Source of the DNA: a virus
Lineage: Duplodnaviria > Heunggongvirae > Uroviricota > Caudoviricetes
Virus record (IMG/VR): IMGVR_UViG_2713896899_000007
Span: 1 to 64,000 of that record
Reading direction: 5' to 3' (one strand)
Length of the DNA stretch: 64,000 nt
In this document: piece after piece, positions 53-15,622 of the stretch
Numbering within the stretch: position 1 is the first letter of the stretch
Layout: every line of letters begins with the position of its first letter
The notes under the pieces: model-generated
The model's database searches: none
Told to the model about the DNA's origin: nothing
What the model saw: the letters and a program-made list of their open reading frames with translations, nothing else
Translations under genes and position numbers: made by a program

Positions 53-143
53 TAAATATATCCTTATAACTGCGGTTGTGAGGCCATATTTATCGACCTC
101 ACAACCATCTTATAAATTATCCTTATTAGAAATAATGTCTAAA

Positions 144-3100
144 TCAGTTGCTTGTTGCCCCAACAGTACCGGCAAATTTCAGCCATTGACCTGACGGACT
201 TCTATTACTACGGTAGTGATAAACGAGGATTGCGTTTGTCACTCCACCGTAGTCAGCTTTATGTGACGTTGTTAAACGAATTGTATAATCACCGTTAGGT
301 AGATTAAAAACTTCGATTATAGATTCTGCTAATTCTACAGCACCAAATCCCGTTATATTGTTGATACTGCCAGCATTGAATCCCATAGCATCGCCAAAGC
401 CAATCCAATAACTTTTACTAAATGCCCCATTTGATTTAAGGTGGCTAATGAATGTGGACAAACTCATGCCCATATCCCCACCAGAAACAGAGGAAGTTCG
501 CACAGTCATGCTTGGAAGAGAACTGCTCTTCACATAGGAACTGAGAAGGTTTGTTACCTCTGTTTTCGTATAAGCATTAAGGTTAGCCGCAGTCAAAGTT
601 ATATCGGCAGAGCCATCAAACGCCACACCAGCAATTTTCCTTGCTGTCTGCAATTTTGTGGCGGTTGCAGCATTACCAGTAGTGTTCTGATTACCGGTCG
701 TATTCACACCAGGTAAGTTAATATTGGCTGTACCGTTAAAACTAACACCACCAATAGTACGAGCCGTTTGTAACTTCGTGGCTGAAGCAGCGTTACCAGT
801 CGTATTCTGATTACCCGCTATATTGACGCCCGGCAAGTTAATATTGGCGGTACCATTAAACGATACACCTCCAATTGTTCTGGCAGTTTGCAACTTCGTT
901 GCAGTGGCTGCGTTGCCAGTAGTGTTCTGATTACCGGTGGCATTGACACCTGGAATTGAGTCTTTGGACGTATAAACTTGCGCCCATTCAGACCAACTAG
1001 ATGTATCCGTATCTCGTCGCGAACGTACATGTACAGGTGCATGAGCACCACTTGTACCGCTCCAACCTATGAACAACTCACCTTCACCAACGGCCGTTGC
1101 GCCCTTAAGATGAAGCACATTCCCGTAAGTCGAAGGATAGCCGTTGTTATATGCCTCGTACATCTGCAATCCAGTAGCAGCGCCTTGCGTTGTGCCTGTG
1201 AGCGCAGTAACGCGTCCTCTGGACGTAATTGTTGGTATCGAAATATTCGCAGAGCCGTTAAACGACACCCCGTTAATAGTTCTAGCAGTTTGCAACTTGG
1301 TCGCTGTGGCCGCGTTACCGGTAGTATTCTGATTACCGGCAGCATTAACACCAGGCAAATTAATATTCGCAGTGCCATCGAAGCTAACACCACCGATGGT
1401 TCTTGCTGTCTGCAATTTTGTAGCTGTAGCAGCATTACCTGTGGTGCTTTGATTGCCAGCTTTGTTAACTCCGGGCAAGTCGATGTTGGCAGTTCCGTTA
1501 AATGAAACGCCACCAATCGTTCTTGCCGTTTGAAGTTTTGTAGCGGTTGCGGCATTACCAGTAGTGCTCTGATTACCTGCCGTGTTTACACCAGGCAAAT
1601 TTATGTTCGCAGATCCATCGAAGGCCACGCCGCCGATAGTTCTTGCAGTCTGCAATTTCGTGGCGGTACTCGCATTACCATTCAATGAACCAGTTAATCC
1701 ACCAGTAACAGACAACGGACCTGAAACCGTCCCTCCTGATGTTGATAATGCACCTATATCCGATGGCGTAGGTTTGTATTTTGTATTGTAGTCTCGTCGC
1801 CAGCCTGGAGAATAATCTGTCCCGTGGTTAATATAAGTAAATTGAGCGTTAGCAGTACCACCACCGCTAGATGTTGTTGGTGTGGTAACGCGGATCGTCA
1901 TTGCGGACTTTATCCCCATTACCTCAATTACTGCCCCGGCAAGATGAATATCGCCACAACCAGTATCAGTAATGATTTTGTTGTTGCCATACGACCATGA
2001 GCCTTTACACATCCAGTACGGATGATTAAACGCCCCTTGAGAGTCCAACCATTCGACAAACTGTGCCGTAGTCCAGTTTCCTGCTGTTGTGCTTACAGAG
2101 CCTCCAAATGCTCGACCAGCGCCAATATTTTTCGTGAAGGTATCCTTACCTGGTATATCAGCACCATTCTGGTTCTTCGCCAATCGGCTATTCGCATTGT
2201 CATTCGCAGCTTTAACTGCCTTTGGAGTTGCAGCCAGTGATTCACTGGTGCTATCTGTCGCACTACTAAGTTTCACAACACCTTTAGTTGTAAGGCTTGC
2301 GTCTTCCATCGCAACTGCACCGGCAATCTCTTCAGCACGATCAGCAGCAGCTTCTGCACGAGTCGCAGCAGATTCGGCAGCAGTTTTGCTCTGAGATGCA
2401 GCCGTCGCACTGCCTGCCGCCTCTGTTGCCTTTGTGGATGCCGTTGAAGCACTACCCTTCGCTGCTGATGCCTGCTTGGTCGCCTCATCTTTTGAAGCGG
2501 ATGCCGAGGTGGCTGATGCAGACGCAGAACTTGCAGATTCAGCAGCTGCCGTCTTAGAGGAAGCAGCATTGTCTTCTGAGGCCTTTGCATTTGTTTCAGA
2601 GGTTTTTGCTGCCGATGCTGAATTTTTAGCAGCTGTAGCCTGACTCGTCGCCTCTGTCGCTTTTGTGGTAGCTGTTGTCGCGGATGAAGACGCGCTTTCC
2701 GCAGATCTTCCTGCCGCAGTTGCACTCGATGAAGCACTATCCGCACTTGCTGAGGCTGCGCTGGCTGACGCTTCTGCCGCAGATTTCGAACTGTTTGCAG
2801 ACGATGCACTCTGTTCGGCTGCCGTTTCAGATGCTTTTGCGTTTGTCTCTGACGTTTTTGCTGCCTTAGACGAATTTGCAGCTTCTGTTGCCGATGATGC
2901 CGCCGCGTTTGCACTCGATGAAGCGTTAGTCTCTGATGCTTTGGCTGCATCCTTAGATGCAGAGGCACTGGACGCAGATGTTGCAGCCTCCGATGCTTTG
3001 GTCGATGCTACAGACGCTGATTCTGCTGCCGCTTCTTTTGCGGCTTCTGCGTTCGTTTCAGATTTTTTCGCAGCAGTTGCACTCGCACTTGCAGCACTTT

Positions 3101-3671
3101 GTGAGGAAGCCGCAGCGGATGCACTTTGAGACGCTTGAGAGGCTTTTTCTCCAGCGGTATTGGCGCTTTCTGCTGCTGCGGCAGCACTGGCCGCCGCCTC
3201 ACGAGCTTTGTCGCCAGCAGCGTCAATCGCGTCGGTGTTATTTTTATACCACTCAACGTTTTCGTTGTGCTCGTTGACGATCTGCATTAGCGGCTTAACG
3301 GTCACTTCTGTACCGTCTTCACGCTCGATTGTCACCTCATCCAGAGCAGTCAACCAACTGCGCATGGACTTGGAATCAGCCGACATACGCGACATTAGCG
3401 CAGTAAAGCGCGCGCTAAACTGTGTTAAGTCGCCTTCATAGGTCGTAATGATTCGGCACGGAACTTCAGACTGAGTTTCGCCGGTATAAGGTTCTGAGAG
3501 AACAATATTCGTATCGCTTGTTACGCGCTTGATCTCATACAGCTTATTGTCGGGGCCAATGACGATCATCCCCGGCAACACACCATTAGCTGTTACGTTC
3601 CAGGCTGTCCCAACCCCAACCAGAGTATTGCTACCCTGTGTAAATGTGATAGTACCTTCCCTGTACCACAT
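144..3671 (-). CDS. side tail fibre protein (Stf-like), 1175 aa
   Basis: Ala/Ser-rich low-complexity segment with SETNA...ATPKAVK motifs typical of lambdoid Stf; seven ~40-aa repeats NAATATKLQTARTIGGVSFNGTANINLPGVN (phage tail fibre repeat type). Confidence 0.85.
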   Translation of the reverse strand: MWYREGTITFTQGSNTLVGVGTAWNVTANGVLPGMIVIGPDNKLYEIKRVTSDTNIVLSEPYTGETQSEVPCRIITTYEGDLTQFSARFTALMSRMSADSKSMRSWLTALDEVTIEREDGTEVTVKPLMQIVNEHNENVEWYKNNTDAIDAAGDKAREAAASAAAAAESANTAGEKASQASQSASAAASSQSAASASATAAKKSETNAEAAKEAAAESASVASTKASEAATSASSASASKDAAKASETNASSSANAAASSATEAANSSKAAKTSETNAKASETAAEQSASSANSSKSAAEASASAASASADSASSSATAAGRSAESASSSATTATTKATEATSQATAAKNSASAAKTSETNAKASEDNAASSKTAAAESASSASASATSASASKDEATKQASAAKGSASTASTKATEAAGSATAASQSKTAAESAATRAEAAADRAEEIAGAVAMEDASLTTKGVVKLSSATDSTSESLAATPKAVKAANDNANSRLAKNQNGADIPGKDTFTKNIGAGRAFGGSVSTTAGNWTTAQFVEWLDSQGAFNHPYWMCKGSWSYGNNKIITDTGCGDIHLAGAVIEVMGIKSAMTIRVTTPTTSSGGGTANAQFTYINHGTDYSPGWRRDYNTKYKPTPSDIGALSTSGGTVSGPLSVTGGLTGSLNGNASTATKLQTARTIGGVAFDGSANINLPGVNTAGNQSTTGNAATATKLQTARTIGGVSFNGTANIDLPGVNKAGNQSTTGNAATATKLQTARTIGGVSFDGTANINLPGVNAAGNQNTTGNAATATKLQTARTINGVSFNGSANISIPTITSRGRVTALTGTTQGAATGLQMYEAYNNGYPSTYGNVLHLKGATAVGEGELFIGWSGTSGAHAPVHVRSRRDTDTSSWSEWAQVYTSKDSIPGVNATGNQNTTGNAATATKLQTARTIGGVSFNGTANINLPGVNIAGNQNTTGNAASATKLQTARTIGGVSFNGTANINLPGVNTTGNQNTTGNAATATKLQTARKIAGVAFDGSADITLTAANLNAYTKTEVTNLLSSYVKSSSLPSMTVRTSSVSGGDMGMSLSTFISHLKSNGAFSKSYWIGFGDAMGFNAGSINNITGFGAVELAESIIEVFNLPNGDYTIRLTTSHKADYGGVTNAILVYHYRSNRSPSGQWLKFAGTVGATSN
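560..1700 (-). repeat. tandem ~120-bp coding repeats inside stf (two blocks, 4+3 copies)
   Basis: near-identical DNA units recur about every 120 bp, matching the ATKLQTAR protein repeats. Confidence 0.6.
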
Positions 3672-3763
3672 GTTGAATATGCTCCTTGATTTGGCGGGCT
3701 ATCCTTGCCCGCCATTAAGTAAGTACATACTTATTTTTACCGATGTAAATATTTTTTTCTACA

Positions 3764-6700
3764 TTACAGAAGGCCAATTCTTACTCGTAGGACGTTGTTA
3801 TCGTCATAAACGTCAATCCGCTGACCATTTATGACCAGTCGCCCATTACCTCCGCTATTACCGTTGATCTCAAGCGTTCCATTTTTGCCGAACCGCCATC
3901 CAGATCTACCGCTAACAAAATTGGTAGATTGCAGATCGCCTACTTTTGCATTGGTGATTGTGCCATCCTTGATATACGCACCATTCATATAGGCGATACT
4001 GTTTTCTATAACAAATGGCGTGGTGATCTTCCCGTTAACAGAGTTGACCAAACCAAATCTGTCCGCCTGCACCAAAAACTGAGAAAGACCGGTGGTGTCG
4101 ATACCAAGCGCAATACCGGCAACATACTTCTGCCCTCCGCTCGTTGAAGTCTCCATTTTCAACGTCCACGCGGTTGAGACTTTTTTGTTGGTATCAGCAA
4201 TGGCCGTTGCCTGCTGTTGAATTGTCGCGGTATTTCCATCCACCTCTGCTTTCAGAGTATCGATTCGCCCACTCAGAGCATTATCTGCCTGCGTTCTCGC
4301 TGTCGTTTCAGTTGTTACCGCCGCGGAAATGTTGGCTGCCGTTTGAGACTCTAAGTTTGTGATTTGAGTCGCCAGTGCAGCATCTTGCTCTGTACGCGTT
4401 TTCGTTTCGGTTGCTACAGCCGCTTTAATATCCTCTTTGTATTGAGAGGTCAGCTTGGTGATCTGAGACGACAACGCCGAGTCAGCATCAGTTCGAGCCT
4501 GCGTTTCAACTGCAACGGCCGCACTAATATCTTTCGCTGTCTGTGCTTTTAAACTTGAAACCTCTTTTGTTAAAGCGGTATCACCATCAGCACGAGCCGT
4601 TGTTTCTCTGGCAAGAGATGCCTCGAGATCATTAGCTTTTGCTGTAAGAGACGTAATCTGAGTGGACAATGCACTATCGGCATCAGTCCTTGCCTTTGTC
4701 TCTACAGCAACCGCTGCGGCAATATCAGTTCCGGTCTGTGCTCGCAGGCTGTTAATTTCTCGTGAGAGCGCCTGGTCAGCACTTGCCCTGGCCTCCTGCT
4801 CCTGAGTGATGGCAGCGGATATATCACCGTCAACCTTTGACTGAAGCTGGTTTATTTGTTTGGCTAATGCAGAGTCCCCGCTTGCTCGAGCCTCCTGCTC
4901 ACTACGTATTGCAGCAGAAATATCATCATCAACCTTTGCCTGAAGTTGGGTGATCTGGCTTGCCAGAGCCGAATCTTCCGTTGCTCGGGCTTCTTGCTCT
5001 TCCTTAATAGCTGCGACGATATCGTTGCTTACTTTCGACTCAAGCTGAGTGATCTGTGTCGTCAGAGCTTCATCGGCAGATGTACGAGCCTCCTGCTCTG
5101 TACTAATCGCCGCGCTGATATCTCCTTCAAACTTAGATTGCAGCTGAGTGACACGCTTTGCCAACGCTTCATCGCCATCGGCACGAGCGGTGGACTCTTC
5201 CAGAATACTGGCCTTAATGTCTTCGCCAATTTCTACGCGAATTTCCTCAACCTTCGTGGCCATTGCAGACATATCATCAGCAAAGGTTTTCTGTGTTGTT
5301 GCGATCTTCGCGTTATTGACCATCTGCTTGTGCTGGTCTTCATCTTGACGAAGAGCCAGGTCAATATTTGTTTTGGCTAACGCCTCAATGTTCGTAGTCA
5401 GTTCTGCACTGGCACGATCGACCTCTGCAACCGTCTTTTTCATTTCTTCAACGGCAGCGGAGCTTTCCTCTACCGTTGACTGCAACACTTCCAGTTGTTT
5501 AGCGTTTGCAGCATCGCCTTCAACACGAGCCTCGCTTTCCTTAGCAATAAGAGCTGCTGCTTCATCTCTTGCAGCCTTTATTGCCTCGACTGTATTAGCG
5601 AGAGCTTTATCGTGTTCAGATACGGTGTTTTCGATTTCAACAATTGCAGCATCAGTAGCATCAATTTTTTCAAACGCTTCATTGACCTTGTCGATCGTTG
5701 CCGAAACCTCACCTTTAAGCTCGGTTTGTGCGTTCTCCAAAGCATCGCTACGCTCGTTGAATTTTATTTCAAAATCCGCGAGGTTATCGCTGAACTGCTT
5801 ATCTAATTCAGCTATATCTTCCTTAACGTCGTTTACCGACCCCTCCAAAGATTCGACGCTCTGGTTGATATGCTCATTTAACTCGTCAACTGCTTCTTGA
5901 GAGGCTTTGCTGTTGATGTCCTCAAGCAGAGCCTGACCAAGCTCGGAAGATGTAATTTTGCCAGCCAGGAACGACAGTACATCGCGAGTTGTCGCCTCTG
6001 TACCCAAGTTTGAGTTCGGAGGGCTTAACATACCTCGCTTGTTCGATGCTCGAACCCAGTAATACCACGTTTCGCTATCCCCAAGACCAGCATGTGTAAA
6101 GGTGGTGCTTGCAGACTCTGCGATCAGTTTCGCCGTATCCAGATTGTTGGTCTGGGATGCGTAAACATTAATGTGATCAAGGTCTACCGAATCTGGATTA
6201 ACCCAATTCAGTATCACATTACGATAGTCTCCAACGGCCGTTAATGACGTTGGTGCATCCGGCGGTGTCATTGTGCCCAGCACCTGATAAACGGTACTGA
6301 TAATTTCTGTTTTTTTACCGTTGAATGAAACCGCATACAGTTGGAAGTCGTAGCGTCCATTCTCCGCGACATTAACGATTTCGTATTGCTCTTCGGTTAC
6401 ACGCGCCGATTGCCAGTTCGATACATTGTTTTCATCAGAACGTCGCCAACTGATCCAATACTCTGGAGATTTCCCTTCCCATGTTGCAGTCAGTTTTACT
6501 GACAGGTTGCCCGGGCTTGAGAGGTAAGTCCCTTCAGTGATTTGCAAATTAGACGGCTTGGAGTAAGTCGGGTCCAATACCGTCGTATTCTGCGGGATAA
6601 GCGTTGCACCATTGTCGATCGCCTCATATTTAGACGGATTGTTTTCAACAGCGGTGATGTCAAAGCTACCCGACGTTTCCCCCTGAGCGATGTTAACGAT

Positions 6701-8494
6701 GCGAACGCGCATAGGTTCGAGATCTGGTTCTGTAATTGTCCAGACACCGTTCAAAACAGGCGTTTCCGCTGACGACAGGGCTTTTGAAAACGTAACCTTT
6801 GTTATGTTTTCGCCAGTTTCAAGAACATCGCGTTCAACGATTTTGCCTTCCTGATTCAATATCCGAATAAAGCTGCCGCTTTTAGCTAACGACACAGGCG
6901 CATCGAGAGTGATGCTGTTTTTGGTAAACTCCACAATTCGACCGGAGTTACGTTTACCTGCACGATATTTGTTCTGAATCAGAACGGTTTCACCAGGCAT
7001 CAGAAATGAGGCGTCTAAGCCGGCAGTAAATGTAATTACATCCGACTCCATTCTGGCGGTATACAAAAGCCACAAACCAACTCGGTGAGCCTGGCCTCGG
7101 CTTGTACATCCAAATGCTACGACTTCTGTTTTACGCTCACCATAACGGCGCATTGCGTCCTGATCTTCAACGTACTCGATATTTTGCTTATAACCGTCCT
7201 CCTTGTTGTTGTAGGTTACGAGCGCAACGGATGGGCGATCTTTACGCGCAGAACCTTTATAGGTAAACAGTCCATCTTTGACGTTGGAGTTGGTAAACAT
7301 CATTACCGGATCTGATGGGCTATCCTGCATGATGTTAACCATGCCACCAGCCCAAAACACCATGCCGCGGAATGCACCGGCAATATCCTGAATTAATCGG
7401 TATGCGTCTTGTCGACTGGTGATCTGCGTATTGATTGCAAAGCGTTTCTCTTTACCCCCAAAGCCATCATCGACCTCTTCGTCACAATATCGACCAATCT
7501 GGTAGAGCTGGCCGAGGTCAATCATGGATTCCGACACAAATTGCCCAAGACCATACCGAGTATTGGTAAGCAAATCGTAGAGAATCCACGCAGGGTTTGA
7601 AGAAGACAACAGCTTAAAAGTACCGTCCCATACGCCGACATAAGTATTGGTGTATTCGTTGTAGTTTGACGGTACTCGGATTTTGATACCGCGCACCAAA
7701 TACGAACGGGAAGGCATTGTGCTACCAAACTGCTCTGAATTGACCTTCAAGCCAACAAGAGCAGAGTTAGGGTAGTTCATTGGCGTGTCGACAATCTCAC
7801 CGATGGAATCAACCCATGTGTCGTTGTAGAGGTACTGGCTACTGTTATCATCTGTAAGACGAATTACCCTAACCTTGTATGCACGACCAGGCTTAGGCAG
7901 TTTCAGCTCATAGCTACGGTAATACACGCCGGTTTTCTTTGCCGTTAGCGTGATATCAACGCTTTTCTCACCTTCTGCCACTACATCAGAAAATGTTGCG
8001 TCTCCGTTGGCGATCTGGAATTTGTACTTCACCGTAGTGCCGTTTGTATCGCCAGAGCTTTTATCAACGCTACGTAAAGAGGGGAATTTCATGATGACAC
8101 GAACGCGATCAGCTTCATCGTTATCGATTGAAACCGTAACGTCGTGTGTTTTTTTAAGCTGAATATTTACGGACTTAGGCGTTTCGACAAAATCAAAACC
8201 AGCCATTGGCGTCTGGTCTTGTGAGCCGTCACGAAAATCCCATGTAATACCGCTGAAGTTGGAAGAGCCATCTTCATTCAAGATCGGTAAATCGTCGATG
8301 AAGATCGACTTTGCGCCATTTACCAGGCCACCGATAACCCCCTCGCCAAGAAGGTCGAGGATGGCTGCCATAGCACGAGAATTGACAGTATCATCAGCTT
8401 CAACCGGTGTACGGCTGGAGCTTTTACTTTTCTTGCCACCAGCACCGGCAATAAGAAGCGGTAATTTTTTCTTCTTGAACTGTTCCATGTCCAA
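3764..8494 (-). CDS. host specificity / central tail fibre protein, lambda J-like, 1576 aa
   Basis: N-terminal and central segments match lambda J motifs (SRSYLVRGIKIRVPSNYN...GVWDGTFK, AFGCTSRGQAHRVGLWLL, KYVAGIALG...SQFLVQADRFG); position after I/K/L/M. Confidence 0.9.
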   Translation of the reverse strand: MDMEQFKKKKLPLLIAGAGGKKSKSSSRTPVEADDTVNSRAMAAILDLLGEGVIGGLVNGAKSIFIDDLPILNEDGSSNFSGITWDFRDGSQDQTPMAGFDFVETPKSVNIQLKKTHDVTVSIDNDEADRVRVIMKFPSLRSVDKSSGDTNGTTVKYKFQIANGDATFSDVVAEGEKSVDITLTAKKTGVYYRSYELKLPKPGRAYKVRVIRLTDDNSSQYLYNDTWVDSIGEIVDTPMNYPNSALVGLKVNSEQFGSTMPSRSYLVRGIKIRVPSNYNEYTNTYVGVWDGTFKLLSSSNPAWILYDLLTNTRYGLGQFVSESMIDLGQLYQIGRYCDEEVDDGFGGKEKRFAINTQITSRQDAYRLIQDIAGAFRGMVFWAGGMVNIMQDSPSDPVMMFTNSNVKDGLFTYKGSARKDRPSVALVTYNNKEDGYKQNIEYVEDQDAMRRYGERKTEVVAFGCTSRGQAHRVGLWLLYTARMESDVITFTAGLDASFLMPGETVLIQNKYRAGKRNSGRIVEFTKNSITLDAPVSLAKSGSFIRILNQEGKIVERDVLETGENITKVTFSKALSSAETPVLNGVWTITEPDLEPMRVRIVNIAQGETSGSFDITAVENNPSKYEAIDNGATLIPQNTTVLDPTYSKPSNLQITEGTYLSSPGNLSVKLTATWEGKSPEYWISWRRSDENNVSNWQSARVTEEQYEIVNVAENGRYDFQLYAVSFNGKKTEIISTVYQVLGTMTPPDAPTSLTAVGDYRNVILNWVNPDSVDLDHINVYASQTNNLDTAKLIAESASTTFTHAGLGDSETWYYWVRASNKRGMLSPPNSNLGTEATTRDVLSFLAGKITSSELGQALLEDINSKASQEAVDELNEHINQSVESLEGSVNDVKEDIAELDKQFSDNLADFEIKFNERSDALENAQTELKGEVSATIDKVNEAFEKIDATDAAIVEIENTVSEHDKALANTVEAIKAARDEAAALIAKESEARVEGDAANAKQLEVLQSTVEESSAAVEEMKKTVAEVDRASAELTTNIEALAKTNIDLALRQDEDQHKQMVNNAKIATTQKTFADDMSAMATKVEEIRVEIGEDIKASILEESTARADGDEALAKRVTQLQSKFEGDISAAISTEQEARTSADEALTTQITQLESKVSNDIVAAIKEEQEARATEDSALASQITQLQAKVDDDISAAIRSEQEARASGDSALAKQINQLQSKVDGDISAAITQEQEARASADQALSREINSLRAQTGTDIAAAVAVETKARTDADSALSTQITSLTAKANDLEASLARETTARADGDTALTKEVSSLKAQTAKDISAAVAVETQARTDADSALSSQITKLTSQYKEDIKAAVATETKTRTEQDAALATQITNLESQTAANISAAVTTETTARTQADNALSGRIDTLKAEVDGNTATIQQQATAIADTNKKVSTAWTLKMETSTSGGQKYVAGIALGIDTTGLSQFLVQADRFGLVNSVNGKITTPFVIENSIAYMNGAYIKDGTITNAKVGDLQSTNFVSGRSGWRFGKNGTLEINGNSGGNGRLVINGQRIDVYDDNNVLRVRIGLL
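4170..5300 (-). repeat. ~99-bp tandem coding repeats (about ten 33-aa heptad-like units) inside the J-like gene
   Basis: protein units DISAAIxxEQEARxxADxALxxQITxLxSKV repeat in tandem; matching DNA periodicity visible. Confidence 0.6.
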
Positions 8495-8505
8495 AAAATC
8501 CTTGA

Positions 8506-9099
8506 TTACATAAGCTGGTCGATGGTGATAGAAGAACTCACGACCTGTGAGCCAACTAAAATTTCCTCGCCATAGATAAGCTGTACAGGGTTCCCCTGGT
8601 TTGTTGTGTTTTGAGGTCCATCAAAGTAATAAGAGTTCGAGTTATCCGCCTGCCTCACACTTTCGTTAGTGGCTTGCGGAGATATGATTTGCGCTATACC
8701 GCCCATCATCAGTGACAAACCGAGAGGCGCAAGAGCGGGCAAGCCAAAAAAAGATGCCACCAATAAAGTGGCTCCAACAACCGTCTGAAACCACCCAAAA
8801 GCAGATCCGCCGCTTCCTCGCGGAACAGGGGTAATGCGAATTTTGGCAATGTTTTCAGACTGCCCCATCATCTGATATTCACTCTCGTCCACAGACCACT
8901 TGTGGCCTTGTTTATTGGTGATCTGGATGTGGTATCTGTCATAGGTTTTGATGTTGCGCTTCATCCATGCTTTAAACCCAGGCTTGTTGGCCTCAATTAA
9001 ATCCAGAGCCTGTTTTGTATTGCGCACCTTTAGATGCCAGTGGCGGCCAAAATGTTTGGCCATAGGGCCGCCAAGCTGCACATGAACTAACTCAGACAC
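8506..9099 (-). CDS. tail assembly protein, lambda I-like
   Basis: position between K and J; C-terminal hydrophobic Gly/Ala-rich segment. Confidence 0.55.
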   Translation of the reverse strand: MSELVHVQLGGPMAKHFGRHWHLKVRNTKQALDLIEANKPGFKAWMKRNIKTYDRYHIQITNKQGHKWSVDESEYQMMGQSENIAKIRITPVPRGSGGSAFGWFQTVVGATLLVASFFGLPALAPLGLSLMMGGIAQIISPQATNESVRQADNSNSYYFDGPQNTTNQGNPVQLIYGEEILVGSQVVSSSITIDQLM

Positions 9100-9911
9100 G
9101 TCTCATCTCCCTTGAGCAAGTCTCTGTGACGCAAGTGATGCGTCGTATGTTTCTGATACATCCCGCCGTAATAAGCACGACAACTTAGGCGGTCGATCTG
9201 GTGATGAAGAATCATTCCATCGCCGATATAAACCGCGCAGTGGTCAGGCATTTTCCCGTATTGGATAAAGAAGATGTCCCCACGTTGAGGCTCTGTTCCG
9301 GGCGCAAGACGCACCAATCCCTCGTTACGGTAGTTCTGATCGAGAATGTCGTTATCGCCGGTGTACCACGATGGAATATGCAGGTGTGCGTTCGGGTTTA
9401 GTTCGACGTTAAACTCACGCTTCAAATAGTCCCGACACAACATCCAGCAATCGAATACGCCAAATACATACGGTCTGCCCAGGTATGGCATTTCGAAACC
9501 ATCAGGTGTGATCACATTCATCTCGCTAAAATGGAAAGGGGCATCTCCCTCAACATTCTTGCGAATAGCCAGAATCATCCACGGAACTTCCGTCGCTTCG
9601 CAGCCTGCACGATCGGCATCAGATGCTTCTGCTGATTCATCAGTATGTGAATGCCAGATTGCGATAACATCACCCGCATCCTCTGCCGCCATAATGTCGT
9701 CAACGTGCATTACAAAAGTGTTCTGCGGGTTCTCCGAAACATTCCGCGCTTCCATAAAGCGATATTTGTCGCCATTAGTTCTAACCAGAAAGCCACACGC
9801 TTCATTAGGGTAGCGATTTATGGCGCAGAGATAGATTTGCTGCATAACGTCAGAGCCAAGCTCAGGGATTGCTTTATTACCCATACCGCGTAGCTCCAAT
9901 AAATCCGCCAA
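9087..9911 (-). CDS. tail assembly protein, lambda K-like (JAMM/MPN plus NlpC/P60-type domains); start may be internal
   Basis: HSH metal-binding motif and Cys/His peptidase-like C-terminal region; position between L and I. Confidence 0.7.
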   Translation of the reverse strand: MADLLELRGMGNKAIPELGSDVMQQIYLCAINRYPNEACGFLVRTNGDKYRFMEARNVSENPQNTFVMHVDDIMAAEDAGDVIAIWHSHTDESAEASDADRAGCEATEVPWMILAIRKNVEGDAPFHFSEMNVITPDGFEMPYLGRPYVFGVFDCWMLCRDYLKREFNVELNPNAHLHIPSWYTGDNDILDQNYRNEGLVRLAPGTEPQRGDIFFIQYGKMPDHCAVYIGDGMILHHQIDRLSCRAYYGGMYQKHTTHHLRHRDLLKGDETCLS

Positions 9912-10608
9912 AATGGATCACACCGTCGGCAAAATAATTCCGACGCGCATTACAGGCGTCATAACGTTTTGTGCAGTAATCCGCACCAGACATAGACGTC
10001 TGCTGGTTATTTTTGTCGAAATATGGACCGGTATAGCCGCATTCTGGCCCTCGGTATTTCCACGGGCAGGTGTTTTTAATGATCTGACGATACGGCAGTT
10101 GCACCCCCATCAAATCGAACACACTGGACAATTCAAACTCGACAACCTGATGAGTTTCGAGAGTTTTCTGTTCGATAAACCACATTTCATCCGGGAAATG
10201 TTGGTTTGGATCTGCTGTTGGGTTGCCGTCTTTAAAATTAACGGCATCGAGGAAGCGAGCCAGCGTCATCTTGCGAATAATGCGGCAGCCAACAAGATCG
10301 TCGTTTGCCTGAACTTCCGCAGAGACGGTTCCGGCAAAGTTCGACACCTGAATTTTTGGACGTGGCAACGTTCCCTGGCCAGTTTTGTCAAAGCCTGATG
10401 CTTTGATTGGCCACGGCTCGTATGTCACTCCTTGCCAGACGACCGGTTGCATCAGTTCGTTTGTTCCGGCATGGAAGAATAGCTTCCCCCCTGAAGTTGT
10501 GTTCGACATATCCAGTACGAACAACTCAATGAGTGCAGAGGGAGATAAGCTCTGAATATCAGCTTTAATTCCCATTGTTTCATCCTTGAAATAAGTAGGC
10601 GCTAACAT
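9877..10608 (-). CDS. minor tail protein, lambda L-like
   Basis: VVWQGVTYEPWPIKASGF...ARFLDAVNF and C-terminal Cys cluster match lambda L. Confidence 0.8.
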   Translation of the reverse strand: MLAPTYFKDETMGIKADIQSLSPSALIELFVLDMSNTTSGGKLFFHAGTNELMQPVVWQGVTYEPWPIKASGFDKTGQGTLPRPKIQVSNFAGTVSAEVQANDDLVGCRIIRKMTLARFLDAVNFKDGNPTADPNQHFPDEMWFIEQKTLETHQVVEFELSSVFDLMGVQLPYRQIIKNTCPWKYRGPECGYTGPYFDKNNQQTSMSGADYCTKRYDACNARRNYFADGVIHFGGFIGATRYG

Positions 10609-10657
10609 CCTGTCAGCGCCACAATAATAGTAAATTAGTACTTACTTATCCAGATAC

Positions 10658-10993
10658 TTAAGCCTCAAATACTTGTCTGAATGGAGCGGTTAATACTGCG
10701 TACCCTTGATATCGCTTGACCGTATGACTGTCGCATACAACTACAATCCGTTTTCCTCTTGGATTAACCCAATAGAACGACTCAACACCTGCTCGCTCAG
10801 TCAGGAAGTCATCGATTGCATTAATTTCGTTGTATGATCTGGTAAAGGTTAACGACCATTCTTCTTTAATACGATTAAGACCTTGAGCCTGTCGCTGCTC
10901 GTAGTCATCACCAAAATTAAGTACCGTTACATTCGGTTTTACGCTTTTTTCAGATTCGTAATCTGGATACCAATTAAACGTTTGTCTTTCCAT
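10658..10993 (-). CDS. minor tail protein, lambda M-like
   Basis: 111 aa; position between tape measure and L. Confidence 0.65.
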   Translation of the reverse strand: MERQTFNWYPDYESEKSVKPNVTVLNFGDDYEQRQAQGLNRIKEEWSLTFTRSYNEINAIDDFLTERAGVESFYWVNPRGKRIVVVCDSHTVKRYQGYAVLTAPFRQVFEA

Positions 10994-11035
10994 CTCACAT
11001 CCTTGTGAGACAGCCCCGACCGGGGCAGTCGATAG

Positions 11036-14000
11036 TTAGTTACGTTGAGTGTTTGGGTTGAGTGATCCGCCAGGGCGTTTTTCTTGAGCGATAGTCTCAA
11101 GTACGACGGCTTTCACCCGTTTAGCAGCATTGTTCCATATGCTTTCTGTATCGCCGGATTCTGTCGTGCTACCGTCACTATGGACGTTGATCTCAATTGA
11201 TACAGGAGAAAGAACATTTCCGCCTCCACTCATACCATCGGTACTGAGCGTTACAGGGATTGTTCGGCCATCAGGCAATGGAACATACGCCTCATTCATA
11301 GAACCTTCCCCAAACAACGCTAATTGAGGTGAGTTAGCAATACCGCCTTTCTGGTATGCCCGGAGCGGGATCACGCCGTCTTTTCCGAATATTCCTCCAT
11401 TTGCAAACTTCGGGATTGCAGGAATGCCTTTAGTTCCGTCAGCCACACTGCTAGTTGCGGTTTTAGCAGAGCTTGATGTCACACTGTCGAAACCACCACC
11501 TGCCCATACTGAAACCAACCCAGATGCAACTGTCGCGCCGAAATTCAACCACTTATTACCAGAGCCGGAAGCATTAGCTCCAAGCATTGCAAACGCGGCA
11601 GACAGAGCACCGGTAACAGAGCTGAGGTTCTGCATCGAGAAGATGGAATCCTTCACTGCTTTTGTCTCAGCATCTTTGGCTTCGGTGCTATCAAATAGCC
11701 CTGATACCCAGCTACCAATCGCATTTGTTGCTGTGCCAATTGCGCTGGTGGTCTGCTGTGTCGTTTGCCCCAATCCAGTTACCGAACTGGACGTCTCCTT
11801 CGTGGCTTCTCCTACCGACTTGTCGCCGTTAACAGTGTTGCCCATTCGTACCCCTTGATTGGCAACGGCGGAAGCAACCCCGGTCAGCAAATTACCACTC
11901 TGTGAACTACCAGCTGCGGTGGTTCCCATCCCCAACATGTTCATTAGAGGCAGCGTGATCTGCGACTTCACGACCATATTGGTGATATCTTTCAAAATGG
12001 ACTGAGACAGGCTGGAGAAGCTCATCTTCCCGTTAATAACGAAATCAGTCAGGACATCAGTTAAGCCACTAAACAAATCAGTCCAGGTGCTTTCGATCTG
12101 CTCTGCCAGGTTTTCGTATTCCAGTGCCAACTTCTGCGTCGCAGTCCCCGTCTCTTTAATAAGCGCGGTATTGCCAGCAGCAATAAGTTGATTGATTTTC
12201 TTTGTATAAAGCGCCACGACTTTAGGATCAGACGCCTTATCACGAAGTTCTATCAACGCTTTGAGATTGCGGTTGTAGGTGTCTTCGAAATCAGCAACTT
12301 TCTCTTCACGAGACGGCGTATAGCCAGCACTAATAATGGAATCCGCCTCCGGTGCCCAAGTGGAGATCATCTGCTCAACATTGCGGCGATTAAACATCTC
12401 GCGATATTCAGGTGTCGCATTTTTGAGGTCCTCAAGACGTTTTTTCGCCTTGTCGATCATCTCTTGAGTGATGAACTCGTTAGGAACCGCATTAGCCAAA
12501 TCTGTCAGCGATTTCGTTGTATCGCGAAGAGACTGATCAAACGATACCGTAGCCTTAGAGCTTTCACCCATTTGCCCCATAAGCTGATCGGCTTTGTCCA
12601 GAGCCTTCTGGTATCCGGCTGCCAGTTTCTGTTGCGCTGCCTGTTCCTTCTTGGCCGCACGCTGCGAGGCGTTAGCTGATCGTTGGGCTGCTTTCTCGGC
12701 AGCTGCTGCATCCTGTTCACGAGCTTTAGTCAGTGCAGCAATGGCTGCGGCACGCTCTTCATCGCTCATTTTCTCCAGAGAGCTGGCACTGGATGCTTTC
12801 TGCAAATTAAGCTGCGTCTTGAGTTGTTTAGGCCCAATAATCGGCTTACCTTCGAAGTCCATCATCGGAGTGCCGTCAGGCAAAGTACGTTGATAAGTCG
12901 CAGAATCCATCTGGTTTCGCATATATTGCGCCAGCGCCTTCTGAGCTGCTTTATCAGTTGTACCTAACCCCAGAACAGTCCCCTGGTTTGACATTACGCC
13001 CTTACCAGTTTTGGCAGCGTTATCTCTCTCGAACTCTGCCTGAGTCAGTTCCTGAGCGACGACTTCCAAATTCTCCTGATAACCACGAATACTGCCTTGC
13101 AGTTTCTTGATCTGCTCGGTGTTTCCTTCCTTTTTCGCTTTTTCAAGCTGATCATTAAGAGTGGCTATTTGCCCCTCGACAGCATTCTTACGAGAAGAAA
13201 GTGAATCAACCAGTTTTTGCGCAGGCTCCAGATAGCTTTTGTTTACCGTTTCACGTAACGGTGCCAATAGTTTGTTCTTTTCGTCATCAGAAAGTGAATC
13301 GTCATCATTGATTTTTTGGATCTTCTCCAGAGCCTCTTGACGAGCTTTAGCGAATGTTGCCGCAAAGTCTCTATTCTCTTCCCGTATTTTCTCTATCTGT
13401 GATTCTGCCGCATCTTTTGCAAGACGTTTGGCTACAGCAATGTCTCCGCGTTCAATTGCCCCAGTAGTTTTATCGCGTTTCTTACGAAGGTCATTTAGCT
13501 CATTTTCTATACGCTTACGTTCATCCTGATTAATCTTTACTGTAGTTCCGGCCATACCCGGCCCATAAACCACCTTTTCGCCAGATTTTAACTCTTGTTC
13601 CTTTTGCGTGATTTGTTGCTCAAGACGCGCTTTATACTCCGCCATCTGTGCACGTTTGGCCGCTGTCATCGCCTCTGGTATTTTCCTAATCTCGTCAACG
13701 ACCTTTGAAGTTTCGCTGCGGAGCATGGTCATGTACGTGATTAGGCCAGCAACAGCTACAGTGGCAACTGTAAATGCTGCCCCTATAGGGTTTGCTGCAA
13801 TGAACGCCGTTAATCCAGCAAAAGCGCCTTTAAGCCCCGTAATCGCCCCACGGATGGCGAAAATAAGAGAGGGGATCGGAGCCAGCCCCATACGTGCCGC
13901 ACGATTGAATCGAGTTACTGCTGTAGCGCCGAGGTTAAATGGAGTCTGTATGGCGGTCGCCATCGTGGCAAAGGTGCTAACCATCTGGCTGCCAGCGCCA

Positions 14001-15622
14001 ACTCCCCCCATGATCCCTGCTCGCATCAGTTTGAACGCAACCATCGCGGCCACGACCTTACCGAGATTAATTACCAGCTCTTGGTTCTTTGCTAACCATT
14101 GAGCAAGCTGACGCAACCCATCGATTGCCGTCGTTAACCCCGAACCTAAAGAATTGGCAAACGAAATCCCTTCGGCGCTATTCATGATTGAAGCCAGTTC
14201 TTTCATCCCCTTTGATAGAGAATCCAGATATCCGGCCTGACCAACTCGATCAGCAAATAACGTGAATGACGTCTGAAGTTGCGCCAGCGCACCTGTGTAG
14301 GTTTGCATCATGTCTTTCGCTGCGTTCTCGTTCTCCGCACGCAGACCAACAAACATCAGAGACAACGCCTGCTTTGCCTCAACCGTACCGCTGGCAACGG
14401 CTTTAGTTAGTTCCCCCATAGTGATGCCTGCGGCGTCTGCCATTGCCTGCATCGCGTTAGGAACGGCTTCACCTAATTGCTGACGTAGCTCTTCCATTGA
14501 CACGACGCCCTTACCGGACATCTGCTGAACGGCCACAGCCGCACGTTTCAACAGCTCACTATCACCACCAAAACGAGCAACGGAGTCCACCAGCGCCTTC
14601 AGAGAACCATCGGTTGGATCTAAGCCAGCAGAACGAAACTTCACGAAGGAGTCTGTTAACGCCTGCATCGCGAACGGCGCATTTTGAGCCATGTCTACGA
14701 TGTACTTCATATCATCAGCGGCAGCCTGGCCAGGGTTGGACTTCTCCTTATTCAACCCTCGAAGCATCACCCGCATACGTTCCATTTCGGCCGCAGCTTC
14801 AACAATAGGCTTCTGCCACCCAAACATGATGTCAGTAACCGTTCTGGCTGCATCTCCGATCTCGCCAAGCAGGAAAATGTTGCCACGAAGGCCAGAGAAC
14901 ATACCTCCTTCGTTATTTTTACCGCTGTGGCCAGAAGCGCCGCTACGCTGCCTGCTACCGCTACCACCATCGCCACTTCCAGATGTACGAACGCGTACCG
15001 GCTTGCTAATCAGTTGCTGACGTCCGATAACTTCGTCCATCTGCTCACGAACCTTTTTCAGTCCCTCGGCAGCCTGACTCGTTGTGACACCCCAATTACT
15101 GAGTCGCTTCGTCGTGGTATTAAGGCGCGTATTCATGCCACTCACGGACGCAGAGGCTTCTTTGACCTCCGTACCAAAGCGGCTTGCGCTTTTGCTTGCA
15201 TAGGTCGCCCAATCAGAGAAATCATTTAGCTCTGATTGCACTTTACGTAATGACGCGGTGAGTTTATCTACTGAAGAAGTTGTCGTATCGACGCGCTCAA
15301 TCAGGGCTTTAAGACCAGAATTGAGGCTGGTGATGTTGCCACGCATTTTACGCGTAGCATCTGAAGCAAGCTCAAAACCGGCAGCTACATCCTGTAGTTT
15401 ATCTGCCGTAGAATCGAGCTTGCTTTCCAGAACGCCAATGATACGGGCGACCGAACCCAAAGAGCGTTCAAAGGTTTGGATTTTTTGAGCAGGCTTTGTT
15501 ACCTGCTCACCAAATCGAGTAAGCAGTTTCCCCGCACGATCGATTGACGCTGTAAACTGTTTGTCTTCCAGCGACAGGATAAACTCTACGTTTTGTGACA
15601 TTCCCTTGTCATCCTCTGCCAA
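11036..15622 (-). CDS. tail tape measure protein, 1528 aa
   Basis: very long helical protein with Gly/Ala-rich hydrophobic middle; sits between the G/T chaperone pair and M. Confidence 0.85.
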   Translation of the reverse strand: MAEDDKGMSQNVEFILSLEDKQFTASIDRAGKLLTRFGEQVTKPAQKIQTFERSLGSVARIIGVLESKLDSTADKLQDVAAGFELASDATRKMRGNITSLNSGLKALIERVDTTTSSVDKLTASLRKVQSELNDFSDWATYASKSASRFGTEVKEASASVSGMNTRLNTTTKRLSNWGVTTSQAAEGLKKVREQMDEVIGRQQLISKPVRVRTSGSGDGGSGSRQRSGASGHSGKNNEGGMFSGLRGNIFLLGEIGDAARTVTDIMFGWQKPIVEAAAEMERMRVMLRGLNKEKSNPGQAAADDMKYIVDMAQNAPFAMQALTDSFVKFRSAGLDPTDGSLKALVDSVARFGGDSELLKRAAVAVQQMSGKGVVSMEELRQQLGEAVPNAMQAMADAAGITMGELTKAVASGTVEAKQALSLMFVGLRAENENAAKDMMQTYTGALAQLQTSFTLFADRVGQAGYLDSLSKGMKELASIMNSAEGISFANSLGSGLTTAIDGLRQLAQWLAKNQELVINLGKVVAAMVAFKLMRAGIMGGVGAGSQMVSTFATMATAIQTPFNLGATAVTRFNRAARMGLAPIPSLIFAIRGAITGLKGAFAGLTAFIAANPIGAAFTVATVAVAGLITYMTMLRSETSKVVDEIRKIPEAMTAAKRAQMAEYKARLEQQITQKEQELKSGEKVVYGPGMAGTTVKINQDERKRIENELNDLRKKRDKTTGAIERGDIAVAKRLAKDAAESQIEKIREENRDFAATFAKARQEALEKIQKINDDDSLSDDEKNKLLAPLRETVNKSYLEPAQKLVDSLSSRKNAVEGQIATLNDQLEKAKKEGNTEQIKKLQGSIRGYQENLEVVAQELTQAEFERDNAAKTGKGVMSNQGTVLGLGTTDKAAQKALAQYMRNQMDSATYQRTLPDGTPMMDFEGKPIIGPKQLKTQLNLQKASSASSLEKMSDEERAAAIAALTKAREQDAAAAEKAAQRSANASQRAAKKEQAAQQKLAAGYQKALDKADQLMGQMGESSKATVSFDQSLRDTTKSLTDLANAVPNEFITQEMIDKAKKRLEDLKNATPEYREMFNRRNVEQMISTWAPEADSIISAGYTPSREEKVADFEDTYNRNLKALIELRDKASDPKVVALYTKKINQLIAAGNTALIKETGTATQKLALEYENLAEQIESTWTDLFSGLTDVLTDFVINGKMSFSSLSQSILKDITNMVVKSQITLPLMNMLGMGTTAAGSSQSGNLLTGVASAVANQGVRMGNTVNGDKSVGEATKETSSSVTGLGQTTQQTTSAIGTATNAIGSWVSGLFDSTEAKDAETKAVKDSIFSMQNLSSVTGALSAAFAMLGANASGSGNKWLNFGATVASGLVSVWAGGGFDSVTSSSAKTATSSVADGTKGIPAIPKFANGGIFGKDGVIPLRAYQKGGIANSPQLALFGEGSMNEAYVPLPDGRTIPVTLSTDGMSGGGNVLSPVSIEINVHSDGSTTESGDTESIWNNAAKRVKAVVLETIAQEKRPGGSLNPNTQRN

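Follow-up and report, generated by a model that had tools for sequence, protein, structure and literature searches.

The 64,000-nucleotide stretch analysed here, which we call the window, covers positions 1 to 64,000 of IMG/VR record IMGVR_UViG_2713896899_000007. Its DNA has 95% identity to CMS-2020a and Cyrano, two phages of Escherichia, and 76% to SSU5, a phage of Salmonella, and hence we take it to be part of an SSU5-like E. coli phage-plasmid. One of its tail genes encodes a homologue of J, the central tail fibre or tip protein of phage lambda. In this homologue the alpha-helical shaft (AHS), short in lambda, is expanded to about 576 residues and contains ten tandem 33-residue units. The gene and the parts of its product are laid out as follows.

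3764..8494, minus strand: homologue of J (central tail fibre / tip protein), 1576 codons when read from a TTG (open reading frame list and translation)
5963..8494, minus strand: N-terminal hub domains and two FNIII/Ig domains, aa 1-844 (collinear with lambda J 1-820)
5222..5962, minus strand: non-repeat part of the shaft, aa 845-1091 (composition, periodicity, unit scan)
4235..5221, minus strand: array of ten tandem 33-aa units, aa 1092-1420 (unit scan, periodicity, structure prediction with AlphaFold2, AF2)
3767..4234, minus strand: C-terminal beta-prism (PF09327), aa 1421-1576 (Pfam, lambda alignment, AF2, Foldseek)
5303..5362, minus strand: most conserved segment of the shaft, aa 1045-1064 (DLALRQDEDQHKQMVNNAKI), acidic (conservation 0.96 across seven length classes)

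The same gene is found as SSU5_020 in SSU5, as CYRAN_20 in Cyrano and as the J gene of CMS-2020a, and RefSeq calls it 'phage tail tip fiber protein' or 'TipJ family phage tail tip protein'. Two codons inside the TTG frame, at 8488, lies an ATG with a better spaced AAGGA 10 nt upstream, and MEQFKKKK is the N-terminus of most homologues. Translation therefore probably starts at this ATG and yields a protein of 1574 aa. All residue numbers given here are counted from the TTG (1576-aa numbering).

The product is assigned to PHROG 31 ('central tail fiber J'), and its domains follow those of lambda J closely. Pfam finds FNIII-A_GpJ (PF24801) at aa 103-237 (E = 1.1e-29), Phage-tail_3 (PF13550) at aa 359-522 (E = 7.5e-34) and a marginal fn3 at aa 746-825. 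In a BLASTP comparison aa 22-860 correspond to lambda J 3-835 (32% identity, E = 5e-119) and aa 1421-1509 to lambda J 841-931 (34% identity), and a search of the PDB matches the lambda structure 8iyk_J with E = 1e-127. Between the two aligned parts aa 861-1420, about 560 residues, occupy the place of about five residues in lambda J. The domain order of lambda J is hub domains (HDs)-FNIII1-FNIII2-AHS-central straight fibre (CSF)-receptor-binding domain (RBD), where a short bundle of three helices, the AHS, links FNIII-2 to the beta-prism CSF (PMC11101478). Since this order places the AHS exactly where the additional residues lie, we read the insert as an expansion of J's shaft.

The likeness to lambda gpJ (PDB 8iyk, 8xcj, 8xck) extends to the position of the gene after M-L-K-I and to the collinear hub, FNIII-1/2 and CSF. 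The difference is that lambda has a shaft of tens of residues, and here about 560 residues are added at the same point. The NCBIfam model lambda_TipJ (NF049904) scores 533 bits against a cut-off of 1950, which makes the protein a relative within the J family rather than an equivalent of lambda TipJ. We are highly confident of this domain identity, a J-like protein with an expanded shaft. It bears out the initial annotation, made from the letters of the DNA, which had named a J-like tip protein with lambda-like parts on both sides of an insert and had marked a region (4170-5980, aa 839-1442) that brackets the expansion properly. To call the protein enlarged was correct in comparison with lambda, less so in that lambda already has a short shaft and relatives of the protein reach 2000-4200 aa.

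The expanded region has the composition of a long coiled coil. Over aa 846-1420 there is not a single proline or tryptophan, and alanine, glutamate, threonine, serine and aspartate abound. The non-repeat part (aa 846-1091) has a hydrophobic period of 3.55, which is heptad-like. AF2 runs were made on monomers and cover aa 1084-1576 at most. With an alignment of 20 sequences aa 1085-1409 are predicted to be helical (pLDDT ~70-86) and the chain to become beta from aa 1413; the single break in the helix of this model probably results from the modelling of one chain alone. The alignment of 33 sequences, which is more diverse, gives one helix over aa 1290-1405 (pLDDT 78-88), and beta begins at aa 1408. 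For aa 846-1084 composition and periodicity suggest that this part is helical as well. The long alpha-helical region of the initial annotation is thus backed by structure prediction over aa 1085-1405/1409, and over aa 846-1084 by composition and periodicity only. When the whole AF2 model was compared with the PDB by Foldseek, the long helix had no matches, and meaningful ones were confined to the beta-prism end. The shaft is presumably trimeric. As a continuous trimeric coiled coil it would be about 85 nm long, with about 4.9 nm for each unit; these lengths are arithmetic, not measurement. A standard FN3-type segment, which would have contradicted the initial annotation, was considered and rejected: the fn3 match lies upstream of the region, aa 1085-1405/1409 are predicted to be helical, and no Pfam family matches aa 860-1420.

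Ten tandem units, the number first proposed, are also what a profile scan finds, with starts at aa 1092, 1125, 1158, 1191, 1224, 1257, 1289, 1322, 1355 and 1388; one unit has 32 aa. A diverged eleventh unit lies apart from them in the non-repeat shaft (aa 978-1010, window 5465-5563). The identity of the array with itself at a lag of 33 residues is 0.486, compared to a mean of 0.148 +/- 0.009 for the best lag in 2000 shuffled sequences (z = 37). The consensus of the units, D-I-s-A-A-I-x-x-E-x-x-A-R-x-x-a-D-x-A-L-x-x-q-I-t-x-L-x-s-k-v-x-x, had been given correctly by the initial annotation. Columns A4, E9, R13, D17, A19, L20 and L27 never vary, and D1, I2 and A12 hardly do; the ladder E9-R13-D17 is thus present in all ten units. 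The hydrophobic period of the array is 3.65, near 33/9. As 33 residues make nine helical turns, or nine core positions, each unit behaves like three hendecads.

At the DNA level the repeats are much less conspicuous. Two units share on average 49% of their residues (range 31-74%) and 52% of their nucleotides (range 40-65%), the longest in-register exact run is 14 nt, and Tandem Repeats Finder detects only 2.1 copies in the DNA of the array. The initial annotation described DNA repeats of ~99 bp, which holds for the length of the unit, but as DNA these repeats are barely visible. Identity between units at the first, second and third codon position is 0.54, 0.69 and 0.32. Judged by these sequence comparisons, the DNA repeats are ancient and what keeps them similar is conservation of the protein, not fresh tandem duplication.

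The gene is common. Its C-terminal 2.2 kb are present in 180 of 5426 complete E. coli genomes (~3%), in every case on a plasmid; the carrier plasmids among the matches listed measure ~95-240 kb, mostly ~100-115 kb. For a comparison of lengths we sampled 40 rows of these complete-genome matches. In 36 the segment is one piece of equal length (2235-2237 nt), in one it carries a 99-nt deletion and in two there are IS3-family insertions. In the latter, plasmids NZ_CP029421 and NZ_CP085184, an IS3-family element (ISEc52 or IS1203) splits the C-terminal 2.2 kb of J, and tail assembly is probably defective there.

Repeats are a classic source of assembly errors, and with insertions found inside J in some plasmids one could argue that the array is mis-assembled or that the reading frame is a non-functional remnant. 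We give this explanation practically no credence. The units, with only about 52% identical DNA, are too different to confuse an assembler, which makes their collapse implausible, and most of the sampled complete plasmids agree in length. Mis-assembly, the artefact that would have undone the initial annotation, can hence be ruled out. As for decay, the protein is under purifying selection, to judge by the identities at the three codon positions. Furthermore, clusters built at 90% identity place 1290 and 1980 sequences with the 1574/1575-aa form, and the 95% identical phage Cyrano (pLF82) yields siphovirus particles (PMC9928086).

The initial annotation also called for a comparison of repeat numbers among related elements. 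In the 120 closest protein clusters the alleles fall into length classes of 1574-1576, 1535, 1509, 1498, 1465, 1425/6, 1385/6 and 1353 aa, besides two partial sequences of 1515 and 1378 aa. The unit profile matches between 11 and 5 times which, with the diverged unit set aside, makes 10 to 4 tandem units. Insertions and deletions within the array measure 33, 66, 99, 65 (33+32), 98 and 131 aa and always comprise whole units. In the non-repeat shaft they measure 7, 11, 18 and 25 aa (site at aa 887-901, window ~5800-5850). As these lengths are sums of heptads and hendecads, the register of the coiled coil is preserved outside the array as well. The shortest E. coli allele has 1353 aa and the longest 1576 aa, and their tandem units number 4-10; J of SSU5 has 1385 aa, with five tandem units and one diverged unit.

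The clearest single step is seen in the complete plasmid of E. coli AH04 (NZ_CP081707, 98% DNA identity), which lacks exactly one unit (99 nt, window 4778-4876). The two sides of the junction have a microhomology of only 3 nt (GAC) in common, with imperfect homology around it. Within the ten-unit lineage such changes are rare: AH04 is the only one of the 40 sampled rows in which the number of units differs. Hence, the length polymorphism that was anticipated is real, but to call it recombination-prone is an overstatement. The units are saturated at synonymous sites and share exact runs of at most 14 nt, and for this reason the array is not expected to be especially prone to recombination. Recent DNA duplication, or a hypervariable array, was rejected on the third-position identity of 0.32, the short exact runs and the 3-nt microhomology of the AH04 junction.

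Outside this group of alleles the design varies much more. Searched with HMMER against 1.84 billion cluster representatives, the C-terminal 737 aa match 3197 proteins at E <= 1e-3, of which 235 reach E <= 1e-30; lengths of 2000-4233 aa are frequent among the matches. Among the best 150 matches the unit profile hits a median of 8 and a maximum of 26 times per protein, with at least 10 hits in 59 proteins. An SSU5-like element of Klebsiella, pJN2-26 (MZ779062, J at 99-12236), encodes a J of 4045 aa of which the first ~870 aa are common with the E. coli protein. They are followed by ~2900 aa in which coiled-coil modules alternate with globular ones rich in Trp and Tyr, then by a PF09327-type prism and a lambda-like 'ENCTVLGT…KIVGD' segment. 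The junction after FNIII-2 is thus a general hot spot of expansion. With relatives of up to 26 units and ~4200 aa, neither 1576 aa nor ten units are extreme.

At the far end of the shaft PF09327 (Phage_Tail_Tip) matches aa 1424-1558 (E = 1.2e-41, 142 bits compared to a cut-off of 22), and the protein ends 18 aa later. The domain aligns to lambda J 841-972 and is predicted by AF2 to be all-beta; Foldseek matches this end to the open-state fibre of lambda (8xcj_F, E = 2.3e-6) and also to 7z4b_EA. PF12421 (Ig_GpJ_C), the LamB-binding Ig-like domain of lambda J (residues 1001-1132), has no match in the protein at E <= 0.01, compared to E = 4.5e-74 in the lambda J control. By homology, then, the C-terminal ~155 aa are the counterpart of the central straight fibre of lambda J and not a divergent RBD. 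The initial annotation had placed an RBD unlike that of lambda, about 130 residues long, behind the insert and on the tip of a stalk. We do not follow it here: what comes after the insert is already the C-terminus, a homologue of the CSF prism.

One could still argue that these ~130-155 residues bind the receptor at the end of a long stalk. As the last domain of the protein they would form its distal tip, and among the best 150 HMMER matches 59 of the 93 proteins that match the prism domain likewise end within 25 aa of it. Furthermore, no separate adhesin gene follows J besides the large fibre, and E. coli alleles differ very little in this domain. Yet it is homologous to that part of lambda J which forms a structural beta-prism above the RBD, and the corresponding end of F-type pyocins is said to have no canonical RBD and to carry separate adhesins. 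The prism end is 94-100% conserved across the E. coli alleles while the shaft varies, and near-invariance is atypical of a host-range determinant. We therefore regard a receptor-binding role of this kind as rather unlikely, although the prism tip may serve as a conserved secondary contact.

J belongs to a tail module of the following genes (the upstream ones identified with PHROGs and Pfam).

8506..15622, minus strand: upstream tail-tip module, tape measure protein (TMP)-M-L-K-I (gene order equal to that of the annotated phage Cyrano)
11036-15622, minus strand: tape measure protein
10658-10993, minus strand: M
9877-10608, minus strand: L
9087-9911, minus strand: K, with JAB and NlpC/P60 domains
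8506-9099, minus strand: I
144..3671, minus strand: downstream tail (side) fibre gene, 1175 aa (repeats and a segment like Mu S/S')

The K-like tip assembly protein combines JAB/MPN and NlpC/P60 peptidase domains, like lambda K, and its reading frame overlaps both flanking genes.

Only 92 nt separate the stop codon of J from the fibre gene. The fibre gene has its own tandem repeats of 120 bp (40 aa), at 613-950 and 1276-1680, with 2.8 and 3.4 copies and 72-74% matches. Its product matches no Pfam or NCBIfam family, and its aa 451-668 are closely akin to the S/S' fibre of phage Mu (PDB 8ju3_A, E = 1e-82). In Cyrano the homologue of this gene is followed directly by the lysis genes; SSU5 has an extra 178-aa 'tail fiber adhesin' downstream of it. 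Judged by gene order only, no small adhesin genes like PyoF11/F12 follow J directly here or in Cyrano. Without an RBD in J and without such genes behind it, the downstream fibre would be the obvious determinant of specificity. It would most likely be this fibre, perhaps together with the prism tip, that recognizes the host. According to a passage of PMC4138488 that cites Kim et al. 2014, the core oligosaccharide of lipopolysaccharide (LPS) is the reported receptor of SSU5.

The closest structural relatives of the protein are found in F-type pyocins. The F2 pyocin fibre 25vf_A matches the whole protein with E = 9e-156 and the C-terminal 737 aa with E = 1.2e-24 over aa 1241-1548. In the alignment the coiled coil that is experimentally seen in 25vf_A covers the last unit (at residues ~1035-1077) and the beginning of the prism. 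The 1172-aa 9l9p_S ('Putative tail fiber protein') matches the J N-terminus with E = 7.6e-133 and has 33-aa repeats of its own (…DISAS…ATETEALSREIDQLKAQIGD…), the same C-terminal domain and the same ...LRVQIGR end. A third structure, 9ze4_N ('Tip attachment protein J central straight fiber domain-containing protein'), matches the units (aa 1083-1193) and the extreme C-terminus. Both 9l9p_S and 9ze4_N have far fewer units than the window J. The PDB entry 23gd_D was matched as well.

What these fibres do has recently been described. In the central fibre of F-pyocins (PA0641/PyoF10) the AHS is exceptionally long and bears side fibres at an acidic kink; the C-terminus is a beta-prism, and a canonical RBD is lacking (PMC13455828; bioRxiv 2026.02.24.707460). 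In F7 pyocin a coiled coil of 163 residues turns into a triangular beta-prism on contact with the cell, which pulls the FNIII plug apart, opens the tip and frees the tape measure protein; killing is lost in mutants in which the prism alone is destabilised (PMC12874032). The switching strands are marked by the motif SxSxxMxxLxS, with an arginine four residues from the acidic M position, and switching is predicted in 24 of 120 central fibres of Gram-negative siphophages (PMC12874032). In lambda, binding of LamB turns AHS residues 841-861 into beta strands (PMC11101478).

The window J shares with F-pyocin fibres a J-like hub with FNIII domains, a long AHS, a prism of the PF09327 type and the lack of an Ig-like RBD. 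It also shares the SxSxxMxxLxS motif with its Arg/Asp pairing (R13/D17 in all ten units). Across aa 861-1420 the motif occurs 19 times in forward and 13 times in reverse direction, compared to 3.7 times each in 1000 shuffled sequences (maxima 10 and 12), an enrichment of about 4-fold that is controlled for composition only. As the pattern is loose, such a match is supportive, not proof. There are also clear differences. The shaft has ~576 aa here and ~163-178 aa in the pyocins, over half of it is the 33-aa array with its period of 3.65 where pyocin shafts are mostly heptads, and the carrier is a DNA-carrying temperate phage-plasmid rather than a tailocin.

The explanation that we think accounts best for these observations, and which we consider probable, is that the insert is the expanded AHS of an SSU5-like phage-plasmid J that works like the shaft of F-pyocins. 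A short lambda-like AHS would have grown to ~576 residues, partly through ancient tandem duplication of the 33-residue unit. The shaft would be a metastable trimeric coiled coil that positions the prism tip. On contact with a cell the coiled coil would refold into a beta-prism and the fibre would shorten; the shortening would part the FNIII plug and the tail tip would open. Gain or loss of whole units would then shift the reach of the fibre, and possibly its stroke, in steps of ~4.9 nm without disturbing the helical register. It is the homology and the motif content of the shaft that lead us to propose F-pyocin-like switching. The fold switch taken by itself we put forward tentatively, as a serious possibility that falls somewhat short of probable.

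Several points weigh against this explanation. Trimerisation and the alpha-to-beta switch are both things that we infer for the window J. Both AF2 runs gave only the helical state for the repeats, and the run with the more diverse alignment, in which we looked for beta (post-switch) repeats, gave none; since the chains were modelled as monomers, this result neither supports nor refutes switching. Coiled coils rich in Ala, Ser and Thr match the loose SxSxxMxxLxS pattern more often than average. The region that switches in F7 has 163 aa, and refolding of a region 3.5 times longer over its whole length would be an extrapolation. The 33-residue period is unlike the continuous heptad register of most of the F2 pyocin shaft (bioRxiv 2026.02.24.707460). 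Finally, the prisms of F-pyocins bear adhesins of the PyoF11/F12 type, which gene order does not place after J here or in Cyrano.

The main rival to a fold switch is a passive spacer: a static stalk that sets the reach of the prism tip, for example to the LPS core through O-antigen or capsule, and never changes its fold. The purely helical AF2 models agree with it. So do the insertions and deletions of whole units, heptads and hendecads, which point to selection for an intact register, and the variation from 4 to 10 units in otherwise similar elements with a nearly constant tip domain. A long thin probe would also help to reach the LPS core, if the passage on the SSU5 receptor is taken at its word. 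However, opening of the tip needs a rearrangement of the shaft in lambda (PMC11101478) as well as in F-pyocins (PMC12874032), and a rigid stalk of 85 nm would keep the mouth of the tail at a distance from the membrane. The ~4-fold enrichment of the switch motif, with the Arg/Asp pairing of switching shafts, also speaks against it. On balance, we believe that a merely static spacer is unlikely.

A second role of the shaft could be that of a docking platform, its length and repeats mainly offering one or more attachment sites to the trimer of the downstream fibre. The most conserved segment of the shaft (aa 1045-1064, with RQDEDQH) is acidic and is a candidate docking site for side fibres, as it resembles the acidic kink to which side fibres bind on the F-pyocin shaft (PMC12874032, PMC13455828). 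Still, a single docking site needs neither 576 residues nor a variable number of units, and side fibres of lambda attach via the tube collar and not via the J shaft (PMC12617516). The N-terminus of the side fibre has no significant match among solved structures, pyocin side fibres included. As the main reason for the expansion, docking seems improbable to us; as an additional function it is compatible with a shaft that works like that of F-pyocins rather than opposed to it.

A stronger version of switching is conceivable, in which the units are quantised fold-switch modules, each storing refolding energy and contributing a fixed contraction step (~4.9 nm of coiled coil into prism layers). We find this doubtful. 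If it were true, the alleles of 4-10 units, and relatives with up to ~26, would represent stroke and energy adjusted to how thick the surface layers of the host are, and SSU5-like phage-plasmids would be a ready allelic series for asking how non-contractile tails power penetration of the envelope.

The design itself is already known and widespread: the gene is annotated in RefSeq, the class of architecture has been characterised structurally and the repeat unit is common. Our search of the literature found no description of the regular 33-residue array, its hendecad-like period, the allelic series in whole units or the register-preserving insertions and deletions. Nor did we find a description of the tip in the literature on SSU5 and Cyrano, where the Cyrano paper gives the length of the tail only (PMC9928086). 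For annotation, our results mean that a C-terminal PF09327 is not to be read as a receptor-binding domain, and that the host range of these elements probably lies in the downstream fibre.

The source of the energy that opens the tip and breaches the envelope in non-contractile tails is only now emerging, and the F-pyocin structures of 2026 point to a metastable coiled-coil shaft. About 3% of complete E. coli genomes carry a shaft of the same kind that is much longer and modular. If this shaft switches, its alleles form a natural dose series in which to study the mechanism, and fibre length could be engineered on their pattern. If it does not switch, it is a clean case of register-preserving length evolution in a coiled-coil fibre.

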